DNA of 64,000 nt from a virus. Both the position numbers and the translations under genes were made by a program. Positions 10,047 to 38,404 of this stretch are shown piece by piece. The stretch covers positions 10,593-74,592 of IMG/VR virus record IMGVR_UViG_3300022177_000062; one strand, written 5' to 3'. The notes under the pieces were generated by a model. That model was not told the origin of the DNA. It did no database searches and worked only from the letters and a program-made list of their open reading frames with translations. Position 1 is the stretch's first letter. Each line of letters begins with the position of its first letter.

Positions 10047-10596
10047 ATCCGTTGGCATTCTTGCCGGGGTCCTTGCCATTCTTGCCGGAACCTCAGTGGC
10101 CTACTTTCATTTCAAGAAACCGGATCCTGTGAATATGGCTCAGTACAGTCCCGCTGCCGAGATGCGCGAGACGGTAAAAATCAAGCGTATCGAGGTTCCA
10201 GTGGAACGCATCATCACCATCGAGAAGGAAAAGGTTGTTGAGAAGCTGAGATTGTCCGACGACATCGCAAAGGATCCGGACAAGCAGATTATAGCCACAA
10301 CGAAAGTCCCGGCCTACGAAGGTGATACAGACGTAGTCGCCATCGTGGACACGAAAACCGGTGAAGGGTCGATGGTGGTAAAGCAAGAACCGGTGCCCCT
10401 GTTTGCCTTCCAGAACAAGAAAGAACTTGGTGGCCGTTTCGGATATGTCGCCGGCGAAAGCGGCCTGAAACAGCAGGTCGATTTTTACGGAAGATGGACC
10501 ATATTTCGCGTTGGGCGTGTTCATGTTGGTCTGTACGGAGAGATCAACAGTAAGCCCGAAGGGAAAACAGCGGTGGACGTATCGTACAGGTGGTAA
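10024..10596 (+). CDS. Spanin-like protein (N-terminal TM, C-terminal amphipathic beta strands)
   Basis: TM GILAGVLAILAGTSVAYF; ends VDVSYRW; last gene of the lysis cassette. Confidence 0.45.
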   Translation: MTINLSLKSVGILAGVLAILAGTSVAYFHFKKPDPVNMAQYSPAAEMRETVKIKRIEVPVERIITIEKEKVVEKLRLSDDIAKDPDKQIIATTKVPAYEGDTDVVAIVDTKTGEGSMVVKQEPVPLFAFQNKKELGGRFGYVAGESGLKQQVDFYGRWTIFRVGRVHVGLYGEINSKPEGKTAVDVSYRW

Positions 10597-26880: not shown

Positions 26881-26991
26881 ATGGAAAGACTCTCGAAACT
26901 GATTGGTTCTAACCTGTGGATTGTTGGTCTGGTAAGCCTGGTTCTGGGAATCGCCGTGGGCTACCTCATTCGCGCAGGACAAGGCTTCTGA
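26881..26991 (+). CDS. 36-aa single-TM protein
   Basis: SD AGGAGG; MERLSKLIGSNLWIVGLVSLVLGIAVGYLIRAGQGF; TGA/ATG overlap with helicase. Confidence 0.55.
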   Translation: MERLSKLIGSNLWIVGLVSLVLGIAVGYLIRAGQGF

Positions 26992-28598
26992 TGCAGGCCT
27001 TTCAGATCCAGAACGATACGATCAGTATGAACTTCAACCGGTGGACCCTTGAGGAATACCACCTATTTCTGAAGACGAAGCAGCTCCCCGAGTTTCAGCT
27101 CGCATACGACTGGCAATCCGACACATACAGAATCTCCTGTTCGGCCCGGTTCGCCCACATCCTCGGTTTTCAAGCAACGACGGAAGATCATGGTTGGCTC
27201 CCCCTGTCCGAATACCTCCTTGACTACCAGCGGTTCATCGTTGCGCAGGCCCTCAAAATCAAACGTTACGCCATATGGAGCTACACCGGCAGCGGCAAGA
27301 CCCCGATGTATCTGGAGTGGGCGCGCCAGGTCTCTCACAGAACAGGCGGCAAGGTTCTGCTTATCGTTCCCCTGAACATCATCAGGCAGACAATCGACAT
27401 GGCTCATAGGTTCTACGGGGACGGAATGGCCATTGAACAGATCGAGACGAGAGAGGCCCTGAAGGTTTGGTGTGCGGATGGGAAACCGACCACAGGAATA
27501 GTCAACCCCGAAAAGTTCATCCCCCGCAAAGAGGAATCGGAGGTCATATCGGAGATCCGGCATTGCGCCGGCGTTGTGCTTGATGAAGCCAGTCTGCTGA
27601 AAGCGGGCGGAGGAAAGATTAAGTGGGCATTGATAAAGTCCTGCAAGGGTATCGAATACAAGCTGGCATGTACAGCCACGCCAGCGCCCAATGACACCAT
27701 GGAATACGCCTCTCAGGGTTCCTTCCTTGAAAAGCTCCGGGATGAAGGCGAGATCCTGTGGACCTTCTTCAAACGGGACAAGGACGGCAACTGGAAGGTT
27801 AAGCAACACGCCGAAGCCGCTTTCTACCGGTTCATGGCGGGATGGTCAATCTATCTGAACGACCCGAAGAACTACGGCTTCCAGAATCACCTCAAGGACC
27901 TGCCGGATCCGGTAATCGAAGAATACAGAATCGAGATGACCCCGGAGCAAAGATCGTTCGCTCTGACCGATAATGATCGGTCCAAACGGGCTCAACTTTT
28001 CGTAGACCGCACGAAGCTGACGATGCCCAGAAGGATCGAGCTGTCCGAGGTCGCCAAGGGGTTTATCTACTCAAAAAAAGGCGCGACGAGGATACCGAGC
28101 CTCAAGCCTGCGTTCGTGGCCGACCTGGTAAGAAGGGACGTCATTCGTCACGAACTGCAGGTCCTTGTCTGGACTATCTTCGATGAAGAATCAACCATCA
28201 TAGCGGAACAGTTGCAGAACGAAACATTCACCGTTGAAACCCTTACAGGCAAGACGAGGGAAGCGGACCGTTTGGAGATCATCGAGCGGTTTAGAACGGG
28301 CAAAACCGACGTGCTGATATCGAAAGCCTCTCTCCTGGGTTTCGGCCTGAACTTCCAGATGTGCGGAAGCATGGTCTATTCGGGGATTAATGACAGTTTC
28401 GAGGAGCATTACCAGAGTATCCGGCGCGCGGTTCGTTATGGCCAGACAAAACAGGTCAAGGTCCACATCCCCTATATCCCCGAACTGGAAGGCGTCGTAT
28501 GGGACAACGTGAAGGCAAAGCAAGAAAAGTTCCTGCAGGGAATAGCGATGCAGGAAGCCGCATATATCGAAGCGATGAAAGGGGTACTAAATGTCTGA
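26991..28598 (+). CDS. SNF2-like SF2 helicase
   Basis: TGSGKT, LDEAS, TATPAPND, QSIRRAVRYGQ. Confidence 0.85.
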   Translation: MQAFQIQNDTISMNFNRWTLEEYHLFLKTKQLPEFQLAYDWQSDTYRISCSARFAHILGFQATTEDHGWLPLSEYLLDYQRFIVAQALKIKRYAIWSYTGSGKTPMYLEWARQVSHRTGGKVLLIVPLNIIRQTIDMAHRFYGDGMAIEQIETREALKVWCADGKPTTGIVNPEKFIPRKEESEVISEIRHCAGVVLDEASLLKAGGGKIKWALIKSCKGIEYKLACTATPAPNDTMEYASQGSFLEKLRDEGEILWTFFKRDKDGNWKVKQHAEAAFYRFMAGWSIYLNDPKNYGFQNHLKDLPDPVIEEYRIEMTPEQRSFALTDNDRSKRAQLFVDRTKLTMPRRIELSEVAKGFIYSKKGATRIPSLKPAFVADLVRRDVIRHELQVLVWTIFDEESTIIAEQLQNETFTVETLTGKTREADRLEIIERFRTGKTDVLISKASLLGFGLNFQMCGSMVYSGINDSFEEHYQSIRRAVRYGQTKQVKVHIPYIPELEGVVWDNVKAKQEKFLQGIAMQEAAYIEAMKGVLNV

Positions 28599-29670
28599 TG
28601 TACAAATCTGGAACTGTGACTGCGTACAGGGAATGGCCGATTTCCTGCCTGACAATTCTGTAGAATGTTGCATCACGTCTATACCGTTTGCGGCCCTCTT
28701 TTCATACAGCCACAAAACCGAAGACATCGGCAATTGCCAGGACTCCGATAACCTCATGTCCTGCCAGTTCTCGGTTCATATCCGGTATGCCTTTGAACAG
28801 CTATTCAGGGTTCTGAAACCGGGAAGCATATTTTGCTGTCATGTCCAACAGCTCCTGACATACAAGGTCCAGCACGGTTTTATGGGAATGCGAGACTTCC
28901 GCGGCGCCGTGATTAGCATGGCGCAGAACCACGGTTTTTTTCCCCACGGCGAAGTAGCCATAGTCAAGAACCCCCGGAACATAGCGAAACGGAACAACCT
29001 GCACTCGCTCATGTTCGTAACCGGGGCGCGCGATGCAAGGGCGTTGTCCCCGGCTATGAACGACTATGTCTTATTCTTCCGCAAGCCTGCCAGCGATGCA
29101 GACCCGGCCGGAAGGGTTCACGGAATCATCGAGACACAGAAGGAGATCATGCTTGTCGAACCATCCCCGATCATCGACTACATTGACCACGGCAATATCA
29201 AGCGGGTTAAGAAGGAGTATCGGGATATCCCGTATAAGATCGTCTCATTTGATGAACGGCTGGGAACCACAGTCACCCGGACCGTGACTGGCGGTGAAGG
29301 TATAAACCGGGACGGATGGTTCACGAAGGAGGATTGGATAAAGTGGGCTCACGGGTGTTGGACCGACATACTGGAAATCGACACTCTGGACGGGTACAAG
29401 TGTGCAAGAGAAAACGAGGAAGAAAAGCATGTCTGTCCTCTTCAACTCGAAGTGATCCGCCGCTGTATCAAGCTCTACACGAACCCAGGCGATACCGTCC
29501 TTGACCCCTTTATGGGTATTGGCAGCGTTGCCTACGTCGCAGTGGAGCAAGGCCGCAACGCCATCGGCTTCGAGCTGAAAGAGTCCTACCACCGCATGGC
29601 CTTGGCCAACATTGAGAAAGCCCAGAATGGTACGGGCCAACAAATATCCCTGTTCTCGGAGGCGATATGA
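28591..29670 (+). CDS. DNA N6-adenine/N4-cytosine methyltransferase (beta class)
   Basis: TSIPF (motif IV) precedes VLDPFMGIGS (motif I). Confidence 0.85.
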   Translation: MSDVQIWNCDCVQGMADFLPDNSVECCITSIPFAALFSYSHKTEDIGNCQDSDNLMSCQFSVHIRYAFEQLFRVLKPGSIFCCHVQQLLTYKVQHGFMGMRDFRGAVISMAQNHGFFPHGEVAIVKNPRNIAKRNNLHSLMFVTGARDARALSPAMNDYVLFFRKPASDADPAGRVHGIIETQKEIMLVEPSPIIDYIDHGNIKRVKKEYRDIPYKIVSFDERLGTTVTRTVTGGEGINRDGWFTKEDWIKWAHGCWTDILEIDTLDGYKCARENEEEKHVCPLQLEVIRRCIKLYTNPGDTVLDPFMGIGSVAYVAVEQGRNAIGFELKESYHRMALANIEKAQNGTGQQISLFSEAI

Positions 29671-30044
29671 TCGTTTACGTCTCATCCCCCTATTCTGCCG
29701 AGACCATGGAACAGGTCACGGCGAACGTGGCCTTTGCCAACGAAATAGGCAAACAGACGCTCGTTGCGGGGCACGTTCCCATTATCCCCCATGTCATGTC
29801 CGCGTTCTGGGACCTTGACGGCCGTCTTCAGAACTTCTCCCATGCTGACTGGATGTTCAAGTATGCCCTGCCCCTTCTGGAGATTGCCGATGCCATTCTC
29901 CTGGCCGGATCATGGGAATCCTCAAAGGGCTGTCTTATTGAGCTTGGCCGGGCAAGGGGCTTGGGTAAGAAAATCTTCTACGGCATGGACGAACTTAAAA
30001 AATACAAGGAGGTAATAGGTGAAGATAACCGGCATACAGCTTAA
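29667..30044 (+). CDS. DUF4406/nucleoside deoxyribosyltransferase-like protein
   Basis: VYVSSPYS...WESSKGCLIE. Confidence 0.6.
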   Translation: MIVYVSSPYSAETMEQVTANVAFANEIGKQTLVAGHVPIIPHVMSAFWDLDGRLQNFSHADWMFKYALPLLEIADAILLAGSWESSKGCLIELGRARGLGKKIFYGMDELKKYKEVIGEDNRHTA

Positions 30045-31569
30045 AAACTTTCTCATCTTCAAGGAACTGAAGCTCGGTGGTGATGATGCTCCCCTGTCAC
30101 CGCACATGAACCTGCTGATGGGCAAAAACAAGAAGGGTAAAACCGACGTCCTGAAGTCGATACCGGCCGGGCTATTCGGCAATCTCGATCCCTCGATGAT
30201 CCGAACCGGCGAAGAGAAGTCGGAGATCATCATTGACCTAGAAGCGTACAAGATCAGGCGCACGATCACCCAGAAGGGAACCAAGGGCCTCAAGGTGACG
30301 AGTACGGACGGGTCAGTCAACACGAGCCTCCAAACCTACATCGACAGCCTCATAGGAATCGCCGACAAGGAAAAAAGGGGCTTCCTGTTCAATCCGATCG
30401 CCCTGGTCCTCTCCGACGATAAAGCCAAATACCTGCGCGACCTCTTCAAGACCACGATGAAGCCCGAGGACCTGAAGGATATCCCCGAGGAATTCACGGA
30501 CGGCATCGACTACACGATGGACGGCATGGACATCATCAATCTCCTGGCCAACGAAAAGACCGGTCTCATCTACCGGAAGCGGGGAGAGCTGAACAAGGCC
30601 GCCGAACAGAAGCTGGCATTGCTGAACGGGAAGCTAGAGGCGATCAAGGGATTCGACGCGAACGCCTATCAACCCGGCGCAGTCGAGGAGCTGTCGAAAC
30701 AGATCGGCATTCTCAGGCAGGAAATCTCAAGTGCCGAAAAGCTACAGGAACTGGAAAAGAAGAACAAGCCGCTCCGGGAAGACCTCGAAAGGAAGATTGC
30801 GAGTGCCGAAGAGCTGTTGAAGGCCCTGAAGGGTGACAAGGAAATAGCTGACGAACGGGTCGTGCTCACCACGGAGATGGACGACATTCGCCGGCAGATC
30901 AGGGAGCTTCAGACGAGGCTTGAAGGAAAAGAAACGGCCCTCAAGGCTCTTGATGACACAAAGAAACAGCGCAAGGACCTCGAAGAGAGCCTGACGAACT
31001 GGCGGGAAACCCTTGAAGCCATCAAGATCAAGGACATGCCCGACATCGAGGAGTTGAACGTTCATCTTCAGGCCAAAGAGGCGGAACACGAAACCGCGCT
31101 GGCCGAAGAAGCAAAGTACGACCTGTGGCTTGAGGCTGAGCAGGACATCCGGCCCGAATACGAGAAGAAGAAGGCCGAAGCCGACAAGCTCACCGATAAC
31201 CTGAAGTACCTGCGGAAAGACCTCGCCACGAAGCTCACGAAGGAAGCCAACATACCCATCGACAACCTGCGTATCGAAGGAAACACCGTCTGGGTCGGCG
31301 ATATCAGCGTGGACAACATGAGCACCAGCGAACAGATGCTCATGGGGCTGGACATGACCAAGCGTCTGAACGCCGGTGCGCCCTTCCAGGTTCTCATTTG
31401 CGACCGTGTCGAATCCCTGGATGACGAGTCCTTTGCCGTTCTGCAACAGTGGGTTATCGAGAACGATTGTCAATTGTTCGCCAGCGCCGTCTATCATCGC
31501 GGTCAGGAGATTCCCGCCGGAGCATTGATAGTTGAGGATGGCACGGTGAGTAAGGCCGTCAACGAGTAA
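30019..31569 (+). CDS. SMC/Rad50-like AAA ATPase
   Basis: Walker A GKNKKGKT, long coiled coil, MSTSEQ signature, ICDRVE Walker B. Confidence 0.8.
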   Translation: MKITGIQLKNFLIFKELKLGGDDAPLSPHMNLLMGKNKKGKTDVLKSIPAGLFGNLDPSMIRTGEEKSEIIIDLEAYKIRRTITQKGTKGLKVTSTDGSVNTSLQTYIDSLIGIADKEKRGFLFNPIALVLSDDKAKYLRDLFKTTMKPEDLKDIPEEFTDGIDYTMDGMDIINLLANEKTGLIYRKRGELNKAAEQKLALLNGKLEAIKGFDANAYQPGAVEELSKQIGILRQEISSAEKLQELEKKNKPLREDLERKIASAEELLKALKGDKEIADERVVLTTEMDDIRRQIRELQTRLEGKETALKALDDTKKQRKDLEESLTNWRETLEAIKIKDMPDIEELNVHLQAKEAEHETALAEEAKYDLWLEAEQDIRPEYEKKKAEADKLTDNLKYLRKDLATKLTKEANIPIDNLRIEGNTVWVGDISVDNMSTSEQMLMGLDMTKRLNAGAPFQVLICDRVESLDDESFAVLQQWVIENDCQLFASAVYHRGQEIPAGALIVEDGTVSKAVNE

Positions 31570-31580
31570 TGATACTGCTC

Positions 31581-31670
31581 GGCTGGCTGGGCGCGGACAG
31601 GAGAGGCGTGGAAAGGAGAGGCGAGGCGCGGACAGGAGAGGCGTGGCGGGGCTAGGCTTGGCAGGCAAGG
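31581..31670 (+). repeat. Pentamer array 1: 15 in-register GG(C/A)NN units plus terminal GGCAGGCAAGG (candidate guide RNA)
   Basis: Intergenic; exact 5-nt phasing at 31585-31659. Confidence 0.85.
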
Positions 31671-31712
31671 AAGTAACACCCCTACGGGGGAAAATACACT
31701 AAGGAGGTCGCA

Positions 31713-32360
31713 ATGGCGACAGAAAAGAAAGCAGTAACAATTTCAGCACCGAAAATCAAAACGGCCGTATTCGAGATCACAGGCGTAGCGCCGCTGGTTA
31801 TCCATCGTTTCAGCGCGAAGACCAAGAACGAAATGAAACTGAAAATGGAAACTGGCAAGGCGGCATCAAGCAAGAAAAACAGAGAGGCCAAGAACACTGA
31901 CGACCTGTACAACGAGGCCCGGTACATCTCGCAGGAAGGTTGGGATGGGCTTCATGCTGGGGCGATCAGGGCCGCTCTTATCTCAGCATGCCGTCTCGTC
32001 GGGTTCAAAATGACCCTTGCCAAGTTGTCTGTGTTCGTCGTTCAGGATGGTTGGGACGCACAGGAACCCCAGATTCCGCTTATCCGCATCTACGGTGACC
32101 CTGTCAAGCAGGAAGACATGGCAAGGGTGGAAACAGGACAGCCGTATGTCACGGTCAGGGCGGCTTACCGGGACTGGAAAGCAAAGGTCAAAATTCGTTT
32201 CGATGAAGACCAGTTCACCATAGACGATATCTACAATCTGCTTTACCGGGTAGGTATGCAGGTCGGTGTCGGAGAGGGAAGACCGGACAGCAAGAAAAGC
32301 GTTGGCATGGGCTGGGGGCTGTTCGAGGTAAACGGAGGTGAGATACATGAAGGCAAATAA
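31713..32360 (+). CDS. RAMP/Cas7-like RNA-binding protein
   Basis: N-terminal FEITGVAPLVIH, central AGAIRAAL, C-terminal glycine loop GVGEGRP...GMGWGLFEV. Confidence 0.65.
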   Translation: MATEKKAVTISAPKIKTAVFEITGVAPLVIHRFSAKTKNEMKLKMETGKAASSKKNREAKNTDDLYNEARYISQEGWDGLHAGAIRAALISACRLVGFKMTLAKLSVFVVQDGWDAQEPQIPLIRIYGDPVKQEDMARVETGQPYVTVRAAYRDWKAKVKIRFDEDQFTIDDIYNLLYRVGMQVGVGEGRPDSKKSVGMGWGLFEVNGGEIHEGK

Positions 32361-32853
32361 CGCTGCAAAACAGATCAAAGAGCCGCTCACCGTATCAGAA
32401 GAACTTTTGTTTCTCAAAGACACGAACGGAGGGCTTCTTGACCCGGCAAAGGTTGTCGATTACGCACGAAACCCCGATACCGCCTTGCACACTCGCTTTG
32501 AATGGGATGATAGCAAGGCGGCGGAAGACTATCGTCTGTGGCAGGCGCGAAAGATCATCAGCCTTGAACTGGTGGTTATCCGCCAAAATATCGGAGAGGT
32601 TGCGCAGATCGTTGTCAACTTGGAAGAAAGAACTAACAAGGACAAACCTGTCAGGGCGTTTGTCTCTCTTAAGCAGGACAGGCGCGGTGACGAAGCCTGC
32701 GGATATCGAAGCATCTATGACGTACTGTCTGACGAGGGCTTGAGGAAGCAGCTACTGGATGAAGCCCGTGGTGATATGCGGATGTTCAAGAAAAAGTACG
32801 ACACGTTGAATGAATTGGCAAAGGTCTTTTCGGCCATGGAAGAGGTGCTGTAA
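32347..32853 (+). CDS. Conserved partner of the RAMP-like protein
   Basis: Overlaps the RAMP-like stop; LDPAKVVDYARNPDTALHTRFEWDDSKAAEDYRLWQAR. Confidence 0.6.
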   Translation: MKANNAAKQIKEPLTVSEELLFLKDTNGGLLDPAKVVDYARNPDTALHTRFEWDDSKAAEDYRLWQARKIISLELVVIRQNIGEVAQIVVNLEERTNKDKPVRAFVSLKQDRRGDEACGYRSIYDVLSDEGLRKQLLDEARGDMRMFKKKYDTLNELAKVFSAMEEVL

Positions 32854-32857
32854 CCAT

Positions 32858-32964
32858 GGCAACACGGCCCGGCTTGGAGTGGCTATGCAGGCAAGGAACG
32901 GCTTGGCACGGCGTGGCTCGGCGAGGCGTGGCGGGGAACGGTACGTCTGGGCGCGGCTAAGCAC
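32858..32964 (+). repeat. Pentamer array 2: 4 units, TGCAGGCAAGG, then a 14-unit in-register run (candidate guide RNA)
   Basis: Intergenic; 5-nt phasing at 32866-32885 and 32890-32959. Confidence 0.85.
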
Positions 32965-32999
32965 AAAACAAGATTAACAGCAAACGGAGATCAAACACT

Positions 33000-33557
33000 A
33001 TGGCTCATAAACACGCAAAACTTATCAGACGGGCATTCGCAAAATGTCCCCTTCTTATCGCCATGTACTCCCGTTTGGACAGCGAGACCTACAAAGGCAT
33101 TAAACGCAAGGGCAAGCTTTCCATCCTTGCGCCCGAGAAGCGACGGGTCTACCAGCACGCAAAGGGGTTGACCGCCCTTCTCGTCATTTGTTCCATCCTC
33201 CTTCTGTCAACGGGGCGTACACACCAGGCAAGAGCACAAAGCCCCGTTGACACCCTTGTTCCCGCAATCATCAAAGTGGAGTCGAACGGAAACCCGCGCG
33301 CAGTGAGCAAGAAAGGGGCAATCGGTCTGATGCAGGTGCGCTGGTGTGTCTGGAAGGACGAGTTGAAGAAAGCAGGCATAGCCAAACACAGGGGCGAACT
33401 ACTGGACCCAACGGTAAACGTACGGGCCGGTAAGTTCGTCCTTACTCACTATCTCAAGAAGCACCGGGGAGATGTCAGGAAAGCCCTGCACAGCTATTCA
33501 GGCGGGGCGAAGGGGTATTACAGGAAGGTAATGGAGGTGCACAATGATAAGCCTTAA
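33000..33557 (+). CDS. SLT-family lytic transglycosylase
   Basis: AIIKVESNGNPRAVSKKGAIGLMQV. Confidence 0.85.
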   Translation: MAHKHAKLIRRAFAKCPLLIAMYSRLDSETYKGIKRKGKLSILAPEKRRVYQHAKGLTALLVICSILLLSTGRTHQARAQSPVDTLVPAIIKVESNGNPRAVSKKGAIGLMQVRWCVWKDELKKAGIAKHRGELLDPTVNVRAGKFVLTHYLKKHRGDVRKALHSYSGGAKGYYRKVMEVHNDKP

Positions 33558-33602
33558 CAGGTCTCTTCCCGATGACGACGAGGAAGAGGAGGAGAGAGCA
33601 AG

Positions 33603-33788
33603 ATGAGCCACGGGACAAGAATGAAGCTATCGGGTATTGCGCTGGTGCTATTCACCCTCTTCTCTATCGGCCTGCTCTACAGATTGGGCTATCAGGACGG
33701 ATGGAACGACCGGGCGAAACGGGACAGTGGCACGTCGTTAACATATCGTAGCACTGTGGTCCTCGCTGGTCCGGGGGTGAACAGATGA
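33603..33788 (+). CDS. Small membrane protein
   Basis: One TM segment, GYQDGW. Confidence 0.5.
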   Translation: MSHGTRMKLSGIALVLFTLFSIGLLYRLGYQDGWNDRAKRDSGTSLTYRSTVVLAGPGVNR

Positions 33789-35113
33789 TTGCCGATGTCA
33801 TTATCAAGGCGGCTGGTATGGAACCGCCCGAATCGCAGCCCTATTTCCCCCGGCCAAGCGGTGCCGGACCGGAAAGGTGCATGAGACAGATGGTCTACCA
33901 TGCTCTCGGGATCGCCCCGGATCAGAAGCGGAATGATCGCTTCATCCTGGTGCTCGATGATTCAAGCATTCACGAAACGCTCACCGAGGACTGGCTGAAC
34001 AAGACGGTCTTTCAGCTCCACAGTCAGCAAATGGCGGTCAACCTCGACTTAACAGACATGTTCCCGGATGCCAGGGAGTGGATACCGGAAAGAATCTGTG
34101 AGACCTGCGCCAAGCTCGTGGAGAGCGGAGCCCTGCAACCGGGTAGCGAGATTATTCCGGCCGGTATCATTCATGGTCACATCGACGGCATCGTCACGGA
34201 CATGATGTTCGTGGATACCCACTACGAGCACAAGGGCCTCAATCATTTCACGTTCGAGAAAATCTGGAATAGCGAAGCCTTTCCGCAGGACTATATCACG
34301 CAATGCTGCATCTACCAGCGCGGTATCAGGGTCAATCTCAATCCGGACATAACCCGTAGCGTTCTGTTAATCAAGAACAAGAACACCGCGGCGTACATGG
34401 ATTTCCTCATCGAGTATGATCTTGAAACCGATACCGCCTATATCATCGAGATGTCCCGGTCCAGCGGCGAAAAGGTCGTGGGAAGCCGGGAAGAACCGAT
34501 CTTCGTCATGGAAAACATCGTAAGAAACGCCATGGCCAAGTTCAGGGAAGTCTATATCCACGTTCAGAACGGGACCTTCCCGGACCGGCAGTATGAACTT
34601 TCCGACTGGCAGTGTCAGTATTGCCCATGGGGAAATATCGAAGGCACATGCTGGCAGGGATTCGAGGAAGAGTATAACGCCCTTGGAGCGAACGGCGTCC
34701 TCGACGGGATAGAGGACATACTTGCAAAATACATTCAGGCCAACGCGGATCTCGGGACCAAGAGGAATCCCGGCTTTGAACAGGAATACATCGACCTCAA
34801 GGGCAAGATCATCGCGCTGTTCGATCAGGCCAACGAATTCCTGCGAACCAACCTGCCGGAACTCTGTGCCTATTACCTCGAAACAAAGGGCCACATAGAC
34901 GCCCTTGAAGGCGAGAAGGAAGCGGTCAAAACGGAAGTGCGCGACCTTCTCCGGGAGAACCGTGTGCGTAAGGCCACGGCAGGTCCCTATGTTGTCGATG
35001 ATCGCCTTGATAAGTATTCATACCTGAACCGGGACAAACTTGATCCTGCCGCCGTCATACAGGCCACAGAGCAGCGTTTCAAACGTGTCCTGACCATCAG
35101 GAGACCAAAATAA
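33785..35113 (+). CDS. Cas4/RecB-like PD-(D/E)XK exonuclease
   Basis: RPS...C.RQ..Y, GHIDG, EHK, Q...Y, CQYCPW...C. Confidence 0.75.
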   Translation: MIADVIIKAAGMEPPESQPYFPRPSGAGPERCMRQMVYHALGIAPDQKRNDRFILVLDDSSIHETLTEDWLNKTVFQLHSQQMAVNLDLTDMFPDAREWIPERICETCAKLVESGALQPGSEIIPAGIIHGHIDGIVTDMMFVDTHYEHKGLNHFTFEKIWNSEAFPQDYITQCCIYQRGIRVNLNPDITRSVLLIKNKNTAAYMDFLIEYDLETDTAYIIEMSRSSGEKVVGSREEPIFVMENIVRNAMAKFREVYIHVQNGTFPDRQYELSDWQCQYCPWGNIEGTCWQGFEEEYNALGANGVLDGIEDILAKYIQANADLGTKRNPGFEQEYIDLKGKIIALFDQANEFLRTNLPELCAYYLETKGHIDALEGEKEAVKTEVRDLLRENRVRKATAGPYVVDDRLDKYSYLNRDKLDPAAVIQATEQRFKRVLTIRRPK

Positions 35114-35121
35114 AGGAGGCT

Positions 35122-35850
35122 ATGTTGAGAGAGTTAACGAGGACAGACCTCGCTTTCGTTGTGTCGCGGATTCCTAAAGACATCCGCGAGCTGGTACAGA
35201 AATACCCATCACTGAGGGTTGCAGGCGGTTTCATCCGAGCAACCATAGCGCGCGAGAAGGTTTCCGATATCGACTTGTTCGGTGCTGACAAGGCCACACT
35301 GGAAATGGCTGCGAAGGATCTTGCGCTCGACCGGAAAGGCAGAACGCATGAGACGAAGAACGCCATTACCGTCCTAGCCTACCCGCGCAAGCCGGTTCAG
35401 TTCATTACCCGCTGGTGTTTCGATTCCACAGAAAGGCTCCTTGAGTCGTTCGATTATACGATTGCCCAAGCGGCCATCGGTGCGGAGATCAACCCCGATA
35501 ACGGCAAGCCTTTCTGGTTCGGCCTTTGTTCCGATGAATTCTATCCCGATCTGGCCGCGCGCAGGCTCGTCTACACAGCTCCGCAACGCAATGAGGATGC
35601 TGGCGGTTCCATGATGCGGCTCAAAAAGTTTCTCCAGCGCGGCTACACGATCCAGGCGCCGAGCATGGCGGCAGTCATGGCCCGTCTCGTCAGCGGAATC
35701 AGCCTTGAAAGGCTACATAACATTGCCGATGGCGATGAGAAGGAAGTTGGCCGCATGATCTGCAATCTTCTCCGGGAAGTCGACCCGCTGGCAATCATCG
35801 ACGGCTTGGATGTTATTGACGAACACGAAATAGAAGGAGGGGCAGCGTAA
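35122..35850 (+). CDS. Nucleotidyltransferase (tRNA-NTase/poly(A) polymerase head-like)
   Basis: VAGGFIR...DIDLF and FDYTIAQAAI. Confidence 0.65.
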   Translation: MLRELTRTDLAFVVSRIPKDIRELVQKYPSLRVAGGFIRATIAREKVSDIDLFGADKATLEMAAKDLALDRKGRTHETKNAITVLAYPRKPVQFITRWCFDSTERLLESFDYTIAQAAIGAEINPDNGKPFWFGLCSDEFYPDLAARRLVYTAPQRNEDAGGSMMRLKKFLQRGYTIQAPSMAAVMARLVSGISLERLHNIADGDEKEVGRMICNLLREVDPLAIIDGLDVIDEHEIEGGAA

Positions 35851-36977
35851 TGAGCGGTTTCGTAGGTAAGATCACAAAGGTCAAAGGCTTAAGTGAGCGC
35901 AGAAGAATCCCCAGGCTCGGAAAGATCCGTTTGGGGTTCAAGGTGGTTAAGGGAGACAAGGAGTTTCCGGCCGAATGTCCCTTCTTTGTTCTTCCCCAAG
36001 AGGTAGCAGCGGTGTACGGCTTCAAGACACAGGAAGATGCTATGAAGCGCGCCCAGGAACTTGAGGTAAAGAGAAAAGACGTCCTCACTTTCATCCAGAA
36101 GAATTACGCCAAGCTCGCTGAGCAGATCGAGATCATGTTGCCTGTGAACGATATCGGCGCCGTCTTCCCCCAAGCCTACACGTGGTACGGAAAGTCGAAG
36201 GGTGTCAAGTGCATGGGCGACGGCGAACAGGCAACACGCTACAACGAAGCCACCAAGGGCATGGAAGACATTGAGTGCCCGTGCTCAAACCTGCGGTCCG
36301 ATGAGAACCCGAAAGGCGAATGCACCCTTCGGGGACATCTGCAATGTCTCCTGCCCAAGGTCAGCATGGGTGGCATCTACCAGATCGATACCGGAAGCAA
36401 GAACAGCACGATAGACGTCAACTCGGGCATCGAGTACGTCCAGACGATCATGCGGGATGCAGGCGTGACGGCGGTAGGCGAGAATGGTGAATTGGTGGGT
36501 CGTTTCGCCATGGTTCCCCTGATTCTCCGGCGCGTCCCCACGGAGACCCATTTCAACGAGCAGAAGCAGATCCACTACACCCTGCAGCTCCTTCCGGCCC
36601 CGTCCATCGATATAGCGGCCATCAACAGGCTCAGACAGGACACCAGGTTCATCATGTCTCACAACCAGTATGCCCTGCCCCCGGCTGAGAACATCAATCC
36701 GGCCATGGACACCGGGGACGTCATCATAGAGGGCGAGATCGTGAACGAAGGATCCGGCGAAGGCGGTACGGAAAGCGGCGGCTCTGACCAGTTCACCGAG
36801 GCCCAGCAGAAAGAAGCCCTGATAAACAGCATCAAGGAACTTCGCCGCAAGCTGACGAAAGACCAGTTCGAGCCGATCCGGGCCAAGTACAAACCGGATA
36901 TCACGGAATGCACGATAGACGAGCTGAAAGATTTTGAGAAAGAGGTAAAAGACGCCATCGAGAAGAAGGCGGCATAA
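35850..36977 (+). CDS. Gp3-like recombination protein
   Basis: RRIPRLGKIRLG N-terminus, C..C zinc motif; next to the exonuclease. Confidence 0.6.
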   Translation: MSGFVGKITKVKGLSERRRIPRLGKIRLGFKVVKGDKEFPAECPFFVLPQEVAAVYGFKTQEDAMKRAQELEVKRKDVLTFIQKNYAKLAEQIEIMLPVNDIGAVFPQAYTWYGKSKGVKCMGDGEQATRYNEATKGMEDIECPCSNLRSDENPKGECTLRGHLQCLLPKVSMGGIYQIDTGSKNSTIDVNSGIEYVQTIMRDAGVTAVGENGELVGRFAMVPLILRRVPTETHFNEQKQIHYTLQLLPAPSIDIAAINRLRQDTRFIMSHNQYALPPAENINPAMDTGDVIIEGEIVNEGSGEGGTESGGSDQFTEAQQKEALINSIKELRRKLTKDQFEPIRAKYKPDITECTIDELKDFEKEVKDAIEKKAA

Positions 36978-36989
36978 AGGAGGTATAAG

Positions 36990-37454
36990 GTGCGATTCAA
37001 TAAGATTAAACTCAGTAAAGATGCCCGGTATCGCTTCGAGTACGAAGTTGAACGGAACGATGGAGAAGAAAGAGACGAGTTTGCCTGCTCAAGCAAGGAC
37101 CGGCCCCGTCCCGAATTTCTCACCACGCTCGACAAGCTCAAACCGTTCGTCGTGAAAATCTGCGAACTGCCGGCTTCTTACGAAAGCAAGATAGCGGTCC
37201 GAGGTGTCAGCTTTTCCTACGGTGGCGACAGTGAAACGATGGGTGCCACAATCACATCGGTCATGGCCCTTGAGAACAGCACGGGGCCTCTTATCCTGAA
37301 CACCCCGCACAAAACAGAGGCTTTCTACAGCGAACACGGCGACGACAGACAGTTACTCCCCGAAGGGTGTGTTGAGGTCCTGAACGACCTTTGCGACGAG
37401 GCTGAATTGTACGTAAGGGGCGAACGTGCCCAGGGGCGGCTCAATGGATGCTAG
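36990..37454 (+). CDS. Hypothetical protein
   Basis: GTG start, SD AGGAGG. Confidence 0.55.
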   Translation: MRFNKIKLSKDARYRFEYEVERNDGEERDEFACSSKDRPRPEFLTTLDKLKPFVVKICELPASYESKIAVRGVSFSYGGDSETMGATITSVMALENSTGPLILNTPHKTEAFYSEHGDDRQLLPEGCVEVLNDLCDEAELYVRGERAQGRLNGC

Positions 37455-37749
37455 GCCAGAATACACAGCTTTGGCAGATGTTTTCGGGGAAGCCCTCGAA
37501 CAGGCTCAGGACGGTAAAGGGAAGGAGCGTCATGCAGAGGCTGGCGAGCCCTTTGAAGATCAGATCATCCTCGAAGTGACCCGGCGGCTCCAGAAAAGCC
37601 CCGTGGCCTTCCCTCTTGGCCAAGCCGTGAAGAAGATCTACGAGACGGTCAACCTCGGCGATTACGACGCGATACAAGAGCTTTACGGGGCCATCAACTA
37701 TATCGGAGCCGCCATCATCAGGTACAAGGAACTGTGCAGGGATGCGTAA
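37444..37749 (+). CDS. Hypothetical protein
   Basis: AQDGKGKERHA...ELYGAINY motif. Confidence 0.55.
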   Translation: MDARPEYTALADVFGEALEQAQDGKGKERHAEAGEPFEDQIILEVTRRLQKSPVAFPLGQAVKKIYETVNLGDYDAIQELYGAINYIGAAIIRYKELCRDA

Positions 37750-38404
37750 ACCCCCATTTACTTCTGAACAAGAGCTCGCGGGAATAGTGGTCGAGTGGCT
37801 TCAACATCATCACTGGGAAGTCTATCAGGAAGTTCCAGTGGGATCAGGTATAGCTGATATCGTGGCCAAACAAGGGCGCATCCTGTGGTTGATAGAAACC
37901 AAGCTGAGCATGAGCCTGAATCTTATCAATCAATTGGATGACCGGATCGGATATGCCAATTTCACATCGGCCGCGATACCATCCCGAGTGAGAAAGGCGC
38001 CCCACAAACTACTGAAGGCCCTCGGCGCGGGATGCTTGACCGTTTACCAGCGGGGATTCGGAGGAAGGCCCTATTTAACGGAAACCGTTCACCCCCGATT
38101 CTTCCGCAAAACTCGGGGTATCGAGCTATACGAGGAGCAGAAAACCTTCTGTAGCGCTGGCAGCCCATCTGGCGGTCACTGGACCCCATTCAAGGAAACT
38201 TCCAGGAATGTGCAGGGATATGTGTTTTCACACCCCGGCTGCACGATGAAGGAGATGCTGGGTAACATAAAGTACCACTACGGCACACCAGCGGCGGCAC
38301 ACACCTGCATTGTCCGATGGATAGAGGGCAATGTTATCAAGGGGATCAGGATCGACAGGGGTGAAAGGTCATTGAGACTTTTCCCGAAAGAGGAAGTTCT
38401 ATGA
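37742..38404 (+). CDS. PD-(D/E)XK nuclease-like protein
   Basis: EQEL...QEV...ADIV...IETK. Confidence 0.6.
   Translation: MRKPPFTSEQELAGIVVEWLQHHHWEVYQEVPVGSGIADIVAKQGRILWLIETKLSMSLNLINQLDDRIGYANFTSAAIPSRVRKAPHKLLKALGAGCLTVYQRGFGGRPYLTETVHPRFFRKTRGIELYEEQKTFCSAGSPSGGHWTPFKETSRNVQGYVFSHPGCTMKEMLGNIKYHYGTPAAAHTCIVRWIEGNVIKGIRIDRGERSLRLFPKEEVL

Follow-up and report, generated by a model that had tools for sequence, protein, structure and literature searches.

VIPR systems consist of a minimal RAMP protein (Vipr), vrRNAs built from GGY/NN pentamers and typically a single accessory gene (vap); they are mostly borne by phages and prophages, and their guides read double-stranded DNA (dsDNA) through the NN positions, with one base skipped per unit, and silence the transcription of rival elements (10.64898/2026.04.26.720920). 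In the 2026 VIPR preprints, Vipr protomers polymerize on the GGY motifs of the vrRNA, the NN positions follow this 1-nt-skip code on dsDNA, and an R-loop triplex silences the rival element. The systems have been divided into seven types with six vap families; DNA binding is predicted for the Vaps of types II, VI, and VII, and those of types III to V are nucleases or helicases (10.64898/2026.04.26.720920). The same work describes "staggered" arrays, in which adjoining guides overlap by 1 nt (10.64898/2026.04.26.720920, text and legend to Fig. S18). Structures of the filament and of the R-loop triplex have been reported in a companion study, which states that the action of the accessory gene remains "unclear" (10.64898/2026.04.26.720927), and another preprint, which recovered VIPR arrays through language-model periodicity, does not treat vap.

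What is known about the function of a Vap comes from Vap1 of type II systems, which are carried by the Escherichia phages SUSP1 and SUSP2 and by a P. fulva prophage. SUSP1 without vap1 plates ~1e4-fold lower on a satellite lysogen, similar to a vipr deletion (10.64898/2026.10.15.759431), and co-expression of vap1 boosts defense, while vrRNA and vipr alone repress GFP and bind DNA (10.64898/2026.04.26.720920). For the SUSP1 and P. fulva systems, assembly of the ribonucleoprotein (RNP), DNA binding, and GFP repression require only vrRNA and Vipr (10.64898/2026.04.26.720920, 10.64898/2026.04.26.720927), and the P. fulva complex from cells co-expressing vap1 is described in the VIPR preprints as containing Vipr, vrRNA, and DNA only.

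The DNA analyzed here, referred to as the window, is a 64,000-nt stretch corresponding to positions 10593 to 74592 of a single 76,657-nt contig, which represents a phage or excised-prophage assembly and not a cellular genome. It contains a pair of genes on the plus strand. The upstream gene, vipr (31713 to 32360), encodes a Cas7-like RAMP protein of 215 aa whose C-terminal part includes a glycine-rich loop, GVGEGRPDSKKSVGMGWG. The downstream gene (32347 to 32853) encodes a 168-aa protein; its ATG at 32347 is preceded by a GGAGG at 32334 to 32338 with an 8-nt spacer, its TAA stop codon is at 32851 to 32853, and an alternative GTG start at 32338 would give a product of 171 aa. Because the vipr TAA occupies 32358 to 32360, the two genes share a 14-nt overlap. 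The preliminary description of this DNA, made from its letters, had placed a 168-aa ORF across the stop codon of a RAMP-like gene and between two arrays; the coordinates confirm this layout, and the motif that it quoted lies at residues 40 to 68 of the 168-aa protein.

The upstream gene, which had been called RAMP-like, proved to encode a true RAMP. Searching the PDB with a profile of the 215-aa family (A2) gave a single match, to chain D of entry 36pp, "SUSP1 Vipr protein" (E = 2.7e-12), which extends over nearly the full length (positions 19 to 202 of 207). The AF2 model of the 215-aa protein has a pLDDT of 89.3, and Foldseek matched it to Csm3, Cmr4, and type VII Cas7 with E values of 1e-5 to 1e-3 and a probability of 1.0. 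The C-terminal loop corresponds to the G-loop and contains the invariant residues G181, G185, G187, R190, and G198. Searches of Pfam and NCBIfam gave no match for the 215-aa protein, and its PHROG, phrog_4652, is a family without an assigned function.

A scan of the 64-kb window for GG runs at a fixed 5-nt period returned only two runs, both flanking the gene pair, and none on the opposite strand. The upstream vrRNA gene (31585 to 31673, plus strand; array 1) comprises 16 GG(C/A)NN units (31585 to 31664) and a two-unit stub. Its guide ends with GGCAG/G at 31660 to 31665, where the slash marks the boundary, and the stub, GGCAA GGAAG, follows with its phase shifted by −1 and extends to 31673. 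The downstream array (32866 to 32959, plus strand) holds a 5-unit guide (32866 to 32890), which ends with TGCAG/G, and a 14-unit guide (32890 to 32959), with the boundary G common to both. Among the 152 loci that carry the 168-aa family (see below), we counted 507 pentamer runs, mostly of 7 to 14 units, in which the GG is followed by a third base that is C in 70%, T in 19%, A in 7%, and G in 4% of units and then by two variable bases. GGCAGG forms the end of 305 of the 507 runs, while GGCAG makes up just 2.9% of internal units, and the phase moves by −1 after the GGCAGG boundary in the related loci, too. Based on these sequence features, we identify the flanking arrays as predicted vrRNA guide genes of the staggered form.

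Two other readings of the arrays were considered. A CRISPR array was ruled out by the 5-nt period, the absence of repeats and spacers, and the lack of a match in Rfam. The first idea, a ring-forming TRAP-like or annealing protein around which 10 to 11 pentamers would wrap, was superseded by the published Vipr filament. Rfam identified neither a ribozyme nor any known RNA family in the arrays of the window, and we found no sigma-70-like promoter and no convincing terminator near them; the guides are therefore probably cut from a long rightward transcript.

The locus thus has a Vipr RAMP with a G-loop, pentamer arrays on the same strand, and an adjoining accessory gene, the features by which VIPR is defined. 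As in published staggered VIPR systems, a minimal, phage-borne locus combines one RAMP gene with one small accessory gene, and both have same-strand GGY/NN guides of 9 to 16 units with a 1-nt overlap at guide boundaries. As judged from sequence, the match of the A2 profile to SUSP1 Vipr together with the vrRNA-type arrays supports that the locus is a phage VIPR system with staggered arrays, in which the 168-aa ORF takes the place of vap. Array 1 differs from the published systems in that 6 of its 16 units are GGA (GGACA, GGAGA, GGAAA, and others) instead of GGY, compared to 7% A at the third position family-wide. In the 2026 VIPR preprints, the pocket of P. fulva Vipr excludes purines at position 3, and GGY-to-GGA changes are among the substitutions tested in SUSP1. 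Either the Vipr of the window tolerates A at this position, or the guide is partly degenerate. We also note an internal duplication in array 1, in which two copies of GGCGCGGACAGGAGAGGCGTGG lie 35 nt apart.

To what extent the 168-aa gene is linked to vipr and the arrays can be read from its relatives. We found 146 relatives of the protein at E ≤ 1e-3 in the protein collection, none of them named, and a scan of IMG/VR with the family motif yielded at least 549 confirmed stretches. Given these relatives and stretches as well as an AF2 model with a pLDDT of 89, the 168-aa gene is not a chance ORF. The 80 best viral loci and 72 loci from prokaryotic genomes and metagenome-assembled genomes (MAGs) were analyzed. 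A Vipr homolog is adjacent to the 168-aa homolog in 74 of the 80 viral loci and 58 of the 72 genome/MAG loci, several of which are short contigs; same-strand period-5 GG runs lie beside the pair in 72 of 80 and 59 of 72 loci, respectively. The 80 viral loci contain 284 runs with a period of 5, compared to 3, 22, and 6 runs with periods of 4, 6, and 7, and 280 of the 284 are on the coding strand. By comparison, just 3 of the 80 viral loci share any other gene with the surroundings of the pair in the window.

The order vipr, then partner gene, holds for 72 of 74 loci. Of these 72, 40 have the two genes overlapping or at most 5 nt apart, which is compatible with coupled translation, and 31 have 100 to 1,186 nt between them, a space occupied by pentamer arrays. 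That the 168-aa ORF is an accessory partner of the RAMP gene had already been proposed in the preliminary description, and the adjacency counts support this proposal: homologs that mostly lack the RAMP gene and arrays, a pattern that would speak against it, are clearly not what is seen, because a Vipr gene and arrays adjoin the homolog in most of the 80 viral and 72 genome/MAG loci. The more specific suggestion of that description, a subunit of the RNP such as a cap or processing factor, goes beyond what our results support. We conclude that the 168-aa gene is very probably the vap gene of a VIPR system.

The 72 genome loci come from Planctomycetota, Pseudomonadota, Bacillota, Bacteroidota, Actinomycetota, Acidobacteriota, Verrucomicrobiota, and others, and the cultured carriers of the family include phages of Mycobacterium smegmatis and Gordonia, e.g., Clifton (gp45/gp46). 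The cassette has its closest relative in a Deltaproteobacteria MAG, on a contig of 1.7 kb, where Vipr is 84% and the partner 53% identical to the proteins of the window. Cyanophage Cy-LDV1 (BK059895.1, a Cylindrospermopsis phage; L082:3992-5600) has a locus of the same kind in which everything is annotated as hypothetical; it comprises a vipr gene (g34) whose product is 52% identical to that of the window, the partner (g33), and staggered arrays punctuated by GGCAG/G between and after the genes, and it adjoins a cI-like repressor/excisionase region. Across loci, the identity of the partner to the copy of the window stays at ~36 to 39% while that of the adjacent Vipr ranges from 28% to 71%, and the two identities are weakly correlated (Spearman rho = 0.32, n = 125; loci L001 to L154 compared to the window). 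In close relatives, Vipr is the slower of the two to diverge, and in distant ones the partner is the more conserved. This pattern is consistent with a core that is fixed and a periphery that changes fast, or with an exchange of the two genes between loci.

The 168-aa protein itself had no match in Pfam or NCBIfam, and its PHROG, phrog_15946, is likewise a family without a function. In an alignment of 47 of the 146 relatives (A1), F51, W53, R63, and Q66 are invariant, and L47, H48, E52, D54, D55, A58, A59, A67, R103, Y120, L137, A140, and Y151 are nearly so, which gives the family motif HxxFEWDDxxAAxxYRxxQAR. The family is acidic, with a median pI of 5.5 and a net charge of approximately −4 (the pI of the protein of the window is 5.6), compared to median pI values of 8.9 for Vipr and 8.6 for the SUSP1-type Vap1 family.

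In the AF2 model of the 168-aa protein (pLDDT, 89.0; pTM, 0.79), helices at residues 16 to 26, 33 to 40, and 57 to 73 precede a beta wing with insertions and a helical hairpin at residues 130 to 167. According to this model, the most conserved residues cluster where the long third helix begins, in the stretch leading into it and on its first turns. In winged-helix proteins, this helix is the usual recognition helix, and its start is where nucleic acid is usually contacted. Foldseek found no match in the PDB for the model at E ≤ 0.001, and BFVD and the ESM Atlas returned only uncharacterized members of the family and unnamed viral clusters, respectively. A wide search with VIA-align gave 32 chains with Z ≥ 5 and a best Z of 6.3, below the level of 7 to 8 reached by chance arrangements; nearly all of these chains are winged-helix domains matched over residues 10 to 137. 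The matched domains (forkhead, MarR/Fur, SelB, and ESCRT-II WH) have the same order of helices and a beta wing, but the matches reach only Z values of 5.0 to 6.3 with an rmsd of 3 to 5 Å, and the 168-aa protein differs from them by large insertions in the wing, the C-terminal helical hairpin, and a net negative charge. Thus, the model weakly suggests a winged-helix-like core at approximately residues 10 to 137.

Searches of Pfam, NCBIfam, PHROGs, and BFVD and the structure searches gave no match to a nuclease, a helicase, or any other enzyme family. No RRM/RAMP or Cas11-like fold is among the structural matches listed, an absence that does not exclude membership in such a family. A search for longer or fused forms of the protein found none, which is weak evidence. 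The non-backbone subunits of class 1 CRISPR systems (Cas5, Cas6, and Cas11) offer a possible analogy in that they are similarly small and encoded beside a Cas7-like backbone gene and an array; however, no RAMP or Cas11-like fold was detected in the 168-aa protein, and the analogy does not imply that it is part of the RNP.

We compared the 168-aa protein with Vap1. SUSP2 Vap1 (L081:3091-3531) has 146 aa, and like the 168-aa gene its gene occupies the slot directly downstream of vipr in the same operon and encodes a protein of similar size without an enzyme domain. At the sequence level, the two have nothing in common that we could detect. BLASTP of SUSP2 Vap1 against the 168-aa ORF gave no alignment, and the hhalign probabilities of A1 against SUSP2 Vap1 and against a 50-sequence Vap1 profile (A3) were 0.04% and 0.2%, respectively. 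A phmmer search of 1.84 billion representatives with a protein near-identical to SUSP Vap1 (P0122) identified 232 relatives at E ≤ 1e-3. The Vap1 family has as its hallmarks a YGD...H N-terminus and an RGxGYRIVxPxEQT motif; the FEWDD motif is present in none of the 232 relatives, and an HMM of A1 had 0 matches at E ≤ 10 among 148 Vap1 relatives. On the basis of the phmmer search, the absence of the motif, and the profile-profile comparison, we rejected a diverged Vap1 as the identity of the 168-aa protein. Because BLASTP, hhalign, and HMM searches detected no similarity, we assign the 168-aa ORF, on sequence, to a Vap family other than Vap1.

The two families also differ in other respects. Vap1 is a predicted DNA-binding protein (10.64898/2026.04.26.720920), and its charge is opposite to that of the 168-aa family (pI 8.6 versus 5.5). 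The guide architecture is different, too, in that the 168-aa family is accompanied by punctuated staggered arrays, whereas SUSP2 has GGT-rich guides that each carry a ~60-nt tail and lack such punctuation. VIPR as such is already known from the 2026 preprints; the Vap family of the 168-aa protein is uncharacterized and distinct from Vap1, and it may correspond to one of vap2 to vap6 or to the vap of a type named otherwise.

As to how the protein acts, we tentatively propose that it would be a non-enzymatic cofactor working beside or after the Vipr-vrRNA filament and not a building block of it; we hold this mechanism to be possible without regarding it as the expected outcome. In this proposal, contacts to the filament or to an unusual nucleic acid structure at the bound target would be made by the winged-helix-like domain and by the surface that the invariant F/W/R/Q residues form on the long helix, and the cofactor would thereby make silencing effective at natural levels of expression. 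SUSP1 Vap1 provides a parallel: the RNP assembles and the reporter is repressed in its absence, but a real infection requires it. The acidity of the family (median pI 5.5, net charge of approximately −4) does not fit a plain DNA binder, and because there is no sequence homology between the families, the Vap1 phenotypes may not transfer to the 168-aa family. Taken as a whole, the explanation that combines a vap gene of a phage VIPR system with this cofactor mechanism is the best one we have, and we consider it reasonably likely.

Three other explanations have to be weighed against a cofactor, and the most serious among them starts from the arrays. The protein might read the punctuation of the vrRNA, i.e., recognize the GGCAG/G boundary, mature or cap the guides, and set where the Vipr filament starts and stops, as an analog of Cas6/Cas5 with an unrelated fold. 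The family co-occurs with staggered arrays whose runs end with GGCAGG far more often than GGCAG occurs as an internal unit (305 of 507 ends versus 2.9% of internal units), and SUSP2, which has the unrelated Vap1, has ~60-nt-tailed guides without punctuation; yet this correlation with array type is one contrast, to the SUSP type, and is confounded by shared ancestry. With no ribozyme or known RNA, promoter, or terminator at the arrays, the guides need to be cut from a longer transcript, but Vipr itself or a host RNase could do the cutting, and in SUSP1 no Vap is needed for the RNP to form. Among the near-invariant residues are H48, Y120, R63, R103, W53, and F51. Such a composition is found in base-stacking RNA binders and metal-independent RNases, and acidic side chains often read guanines; against this stands that neither an RNase nor a RAMP fold was detected in the model of the 168-aa protein. 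On balance, we regard this explanation as unlikely. In its most specific version, the family would supply a factor that is missing from staggered-array VIPR and that matures guides or delimits filaments, and it would read GGCAG/G to define guide ends. This version is a little less likely still; if true, a role of the Cas6/Cas5 type in CRISPR would here be carried out by an unrelated, winged-helix-like fold.

The charge of the protein suggests something different, namely an acidic chaperone or specificity factor that keeps the basic Vipr off cellular RNA and DNA until GGY repeats are met. The P protein, which keeps the nucleoprotein of negative-strand RNA viruses free of RNA, is an analogous case. 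The opposite charges of Vap (pI 5.5) and Vipr (pI 8.9), the invariant acidic-aromatic patch FEWDD, and the frequent start/stop overlap, which suits co-translation, are all consistent with a chaperone; on the other hand, 31 of 72 loci have 100 to 1,186 nt of array between vipr and vap, and the Vipr proteins of SUSP1 and P. fulva assemble specifically with no chaperone reported, so that we judge this explanation improbable. That the gene has no part in VIPR and is a separate phage gene co-inherited with vipr, such as a transcription regulator of the early operon or a counter-defense protein, appears highly improbable. A winged-helix-like fold would suit such a regulator, the locus is part of a long early/replication operon that runs rightward, its counterpart in Mycobacterium phage Clifton follows just after cro and an antirepressor, and the identities of Vap and Vipr are only weakly correlated (rho = 0.32). 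However, adjacency to vipr and the array has been kept across many phyla while all other neighbors change, with just 3 of 80 viral loci having any other of the genes that surround the pair in the window.

[quoted passage not shown] The best scores, 21/32 and 19/28, were at the level of shuffled guides, and no target was found in the contig or the related loci. Because these scores are no better than those of shuffled guides, the two long guides of the window appear not to be self-targeting.

A rightward replication/recombination operon (26916 to 38404 of the window) surrounds the VIPR cassette. The operon includes genes for an SNF2-type helicase, a DNA methyltransferase, an SMC/AAA_23-like ATPase (phrog_1499), a nucleotidyltransferase, a Gp3-like (PF18897) protein, an SLT transglycosylase with a signal-anchor-like N-terminus, and a Cas4-like PD-(D/E)XK nuclease with a C-terminal Cys cluster, as well as a small ORF for a putative nucleoside-deoxyribosyltransferase-like protein, as suggested by reading its sequence.

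Our analyses bring forward a family in the vap position that is very widespread: at least 549 IMG/VR stretches carry it, and it occurs in prophages whose hosts range from Planctomycetota to Firmicutes and Actinomycetota. In sequence, the family is distinct from the sole Vap that has been tested; it is also acidic, unlike Vipr and Vap1, and tied to punctuated staggered arrays. VIPR has been known for only months, and the preprints explicitly leave the role of the accessory gene open. This Vap family, which differs from the one studied, merits experiments, for which the Mycobacterium smegmatis and Gordonia phages (such as Clifton, gp45/gp46) offer a tractable system. For annotation, the vap-position gene and its neighbors can now be named and are no longer "hypothetical".

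We note that coding sequences have been annotated over vrRNA arrays. In Mycobacterium phage Clifton, gene 44 (L155:2114-2302), a "hypothetical protein", overlaps pentamer runs (L155:2133-2365) that immediately precede the genes for Vipr (gp45) and Vap (gp46). Similarly, the N-terminus of protein P0080 is extended by 85 residues of WRG/ARRG repeats, which are translated array, and a 308-aa ORF on the minus strand of the window (30742 to 31668) likewise covers array 1.
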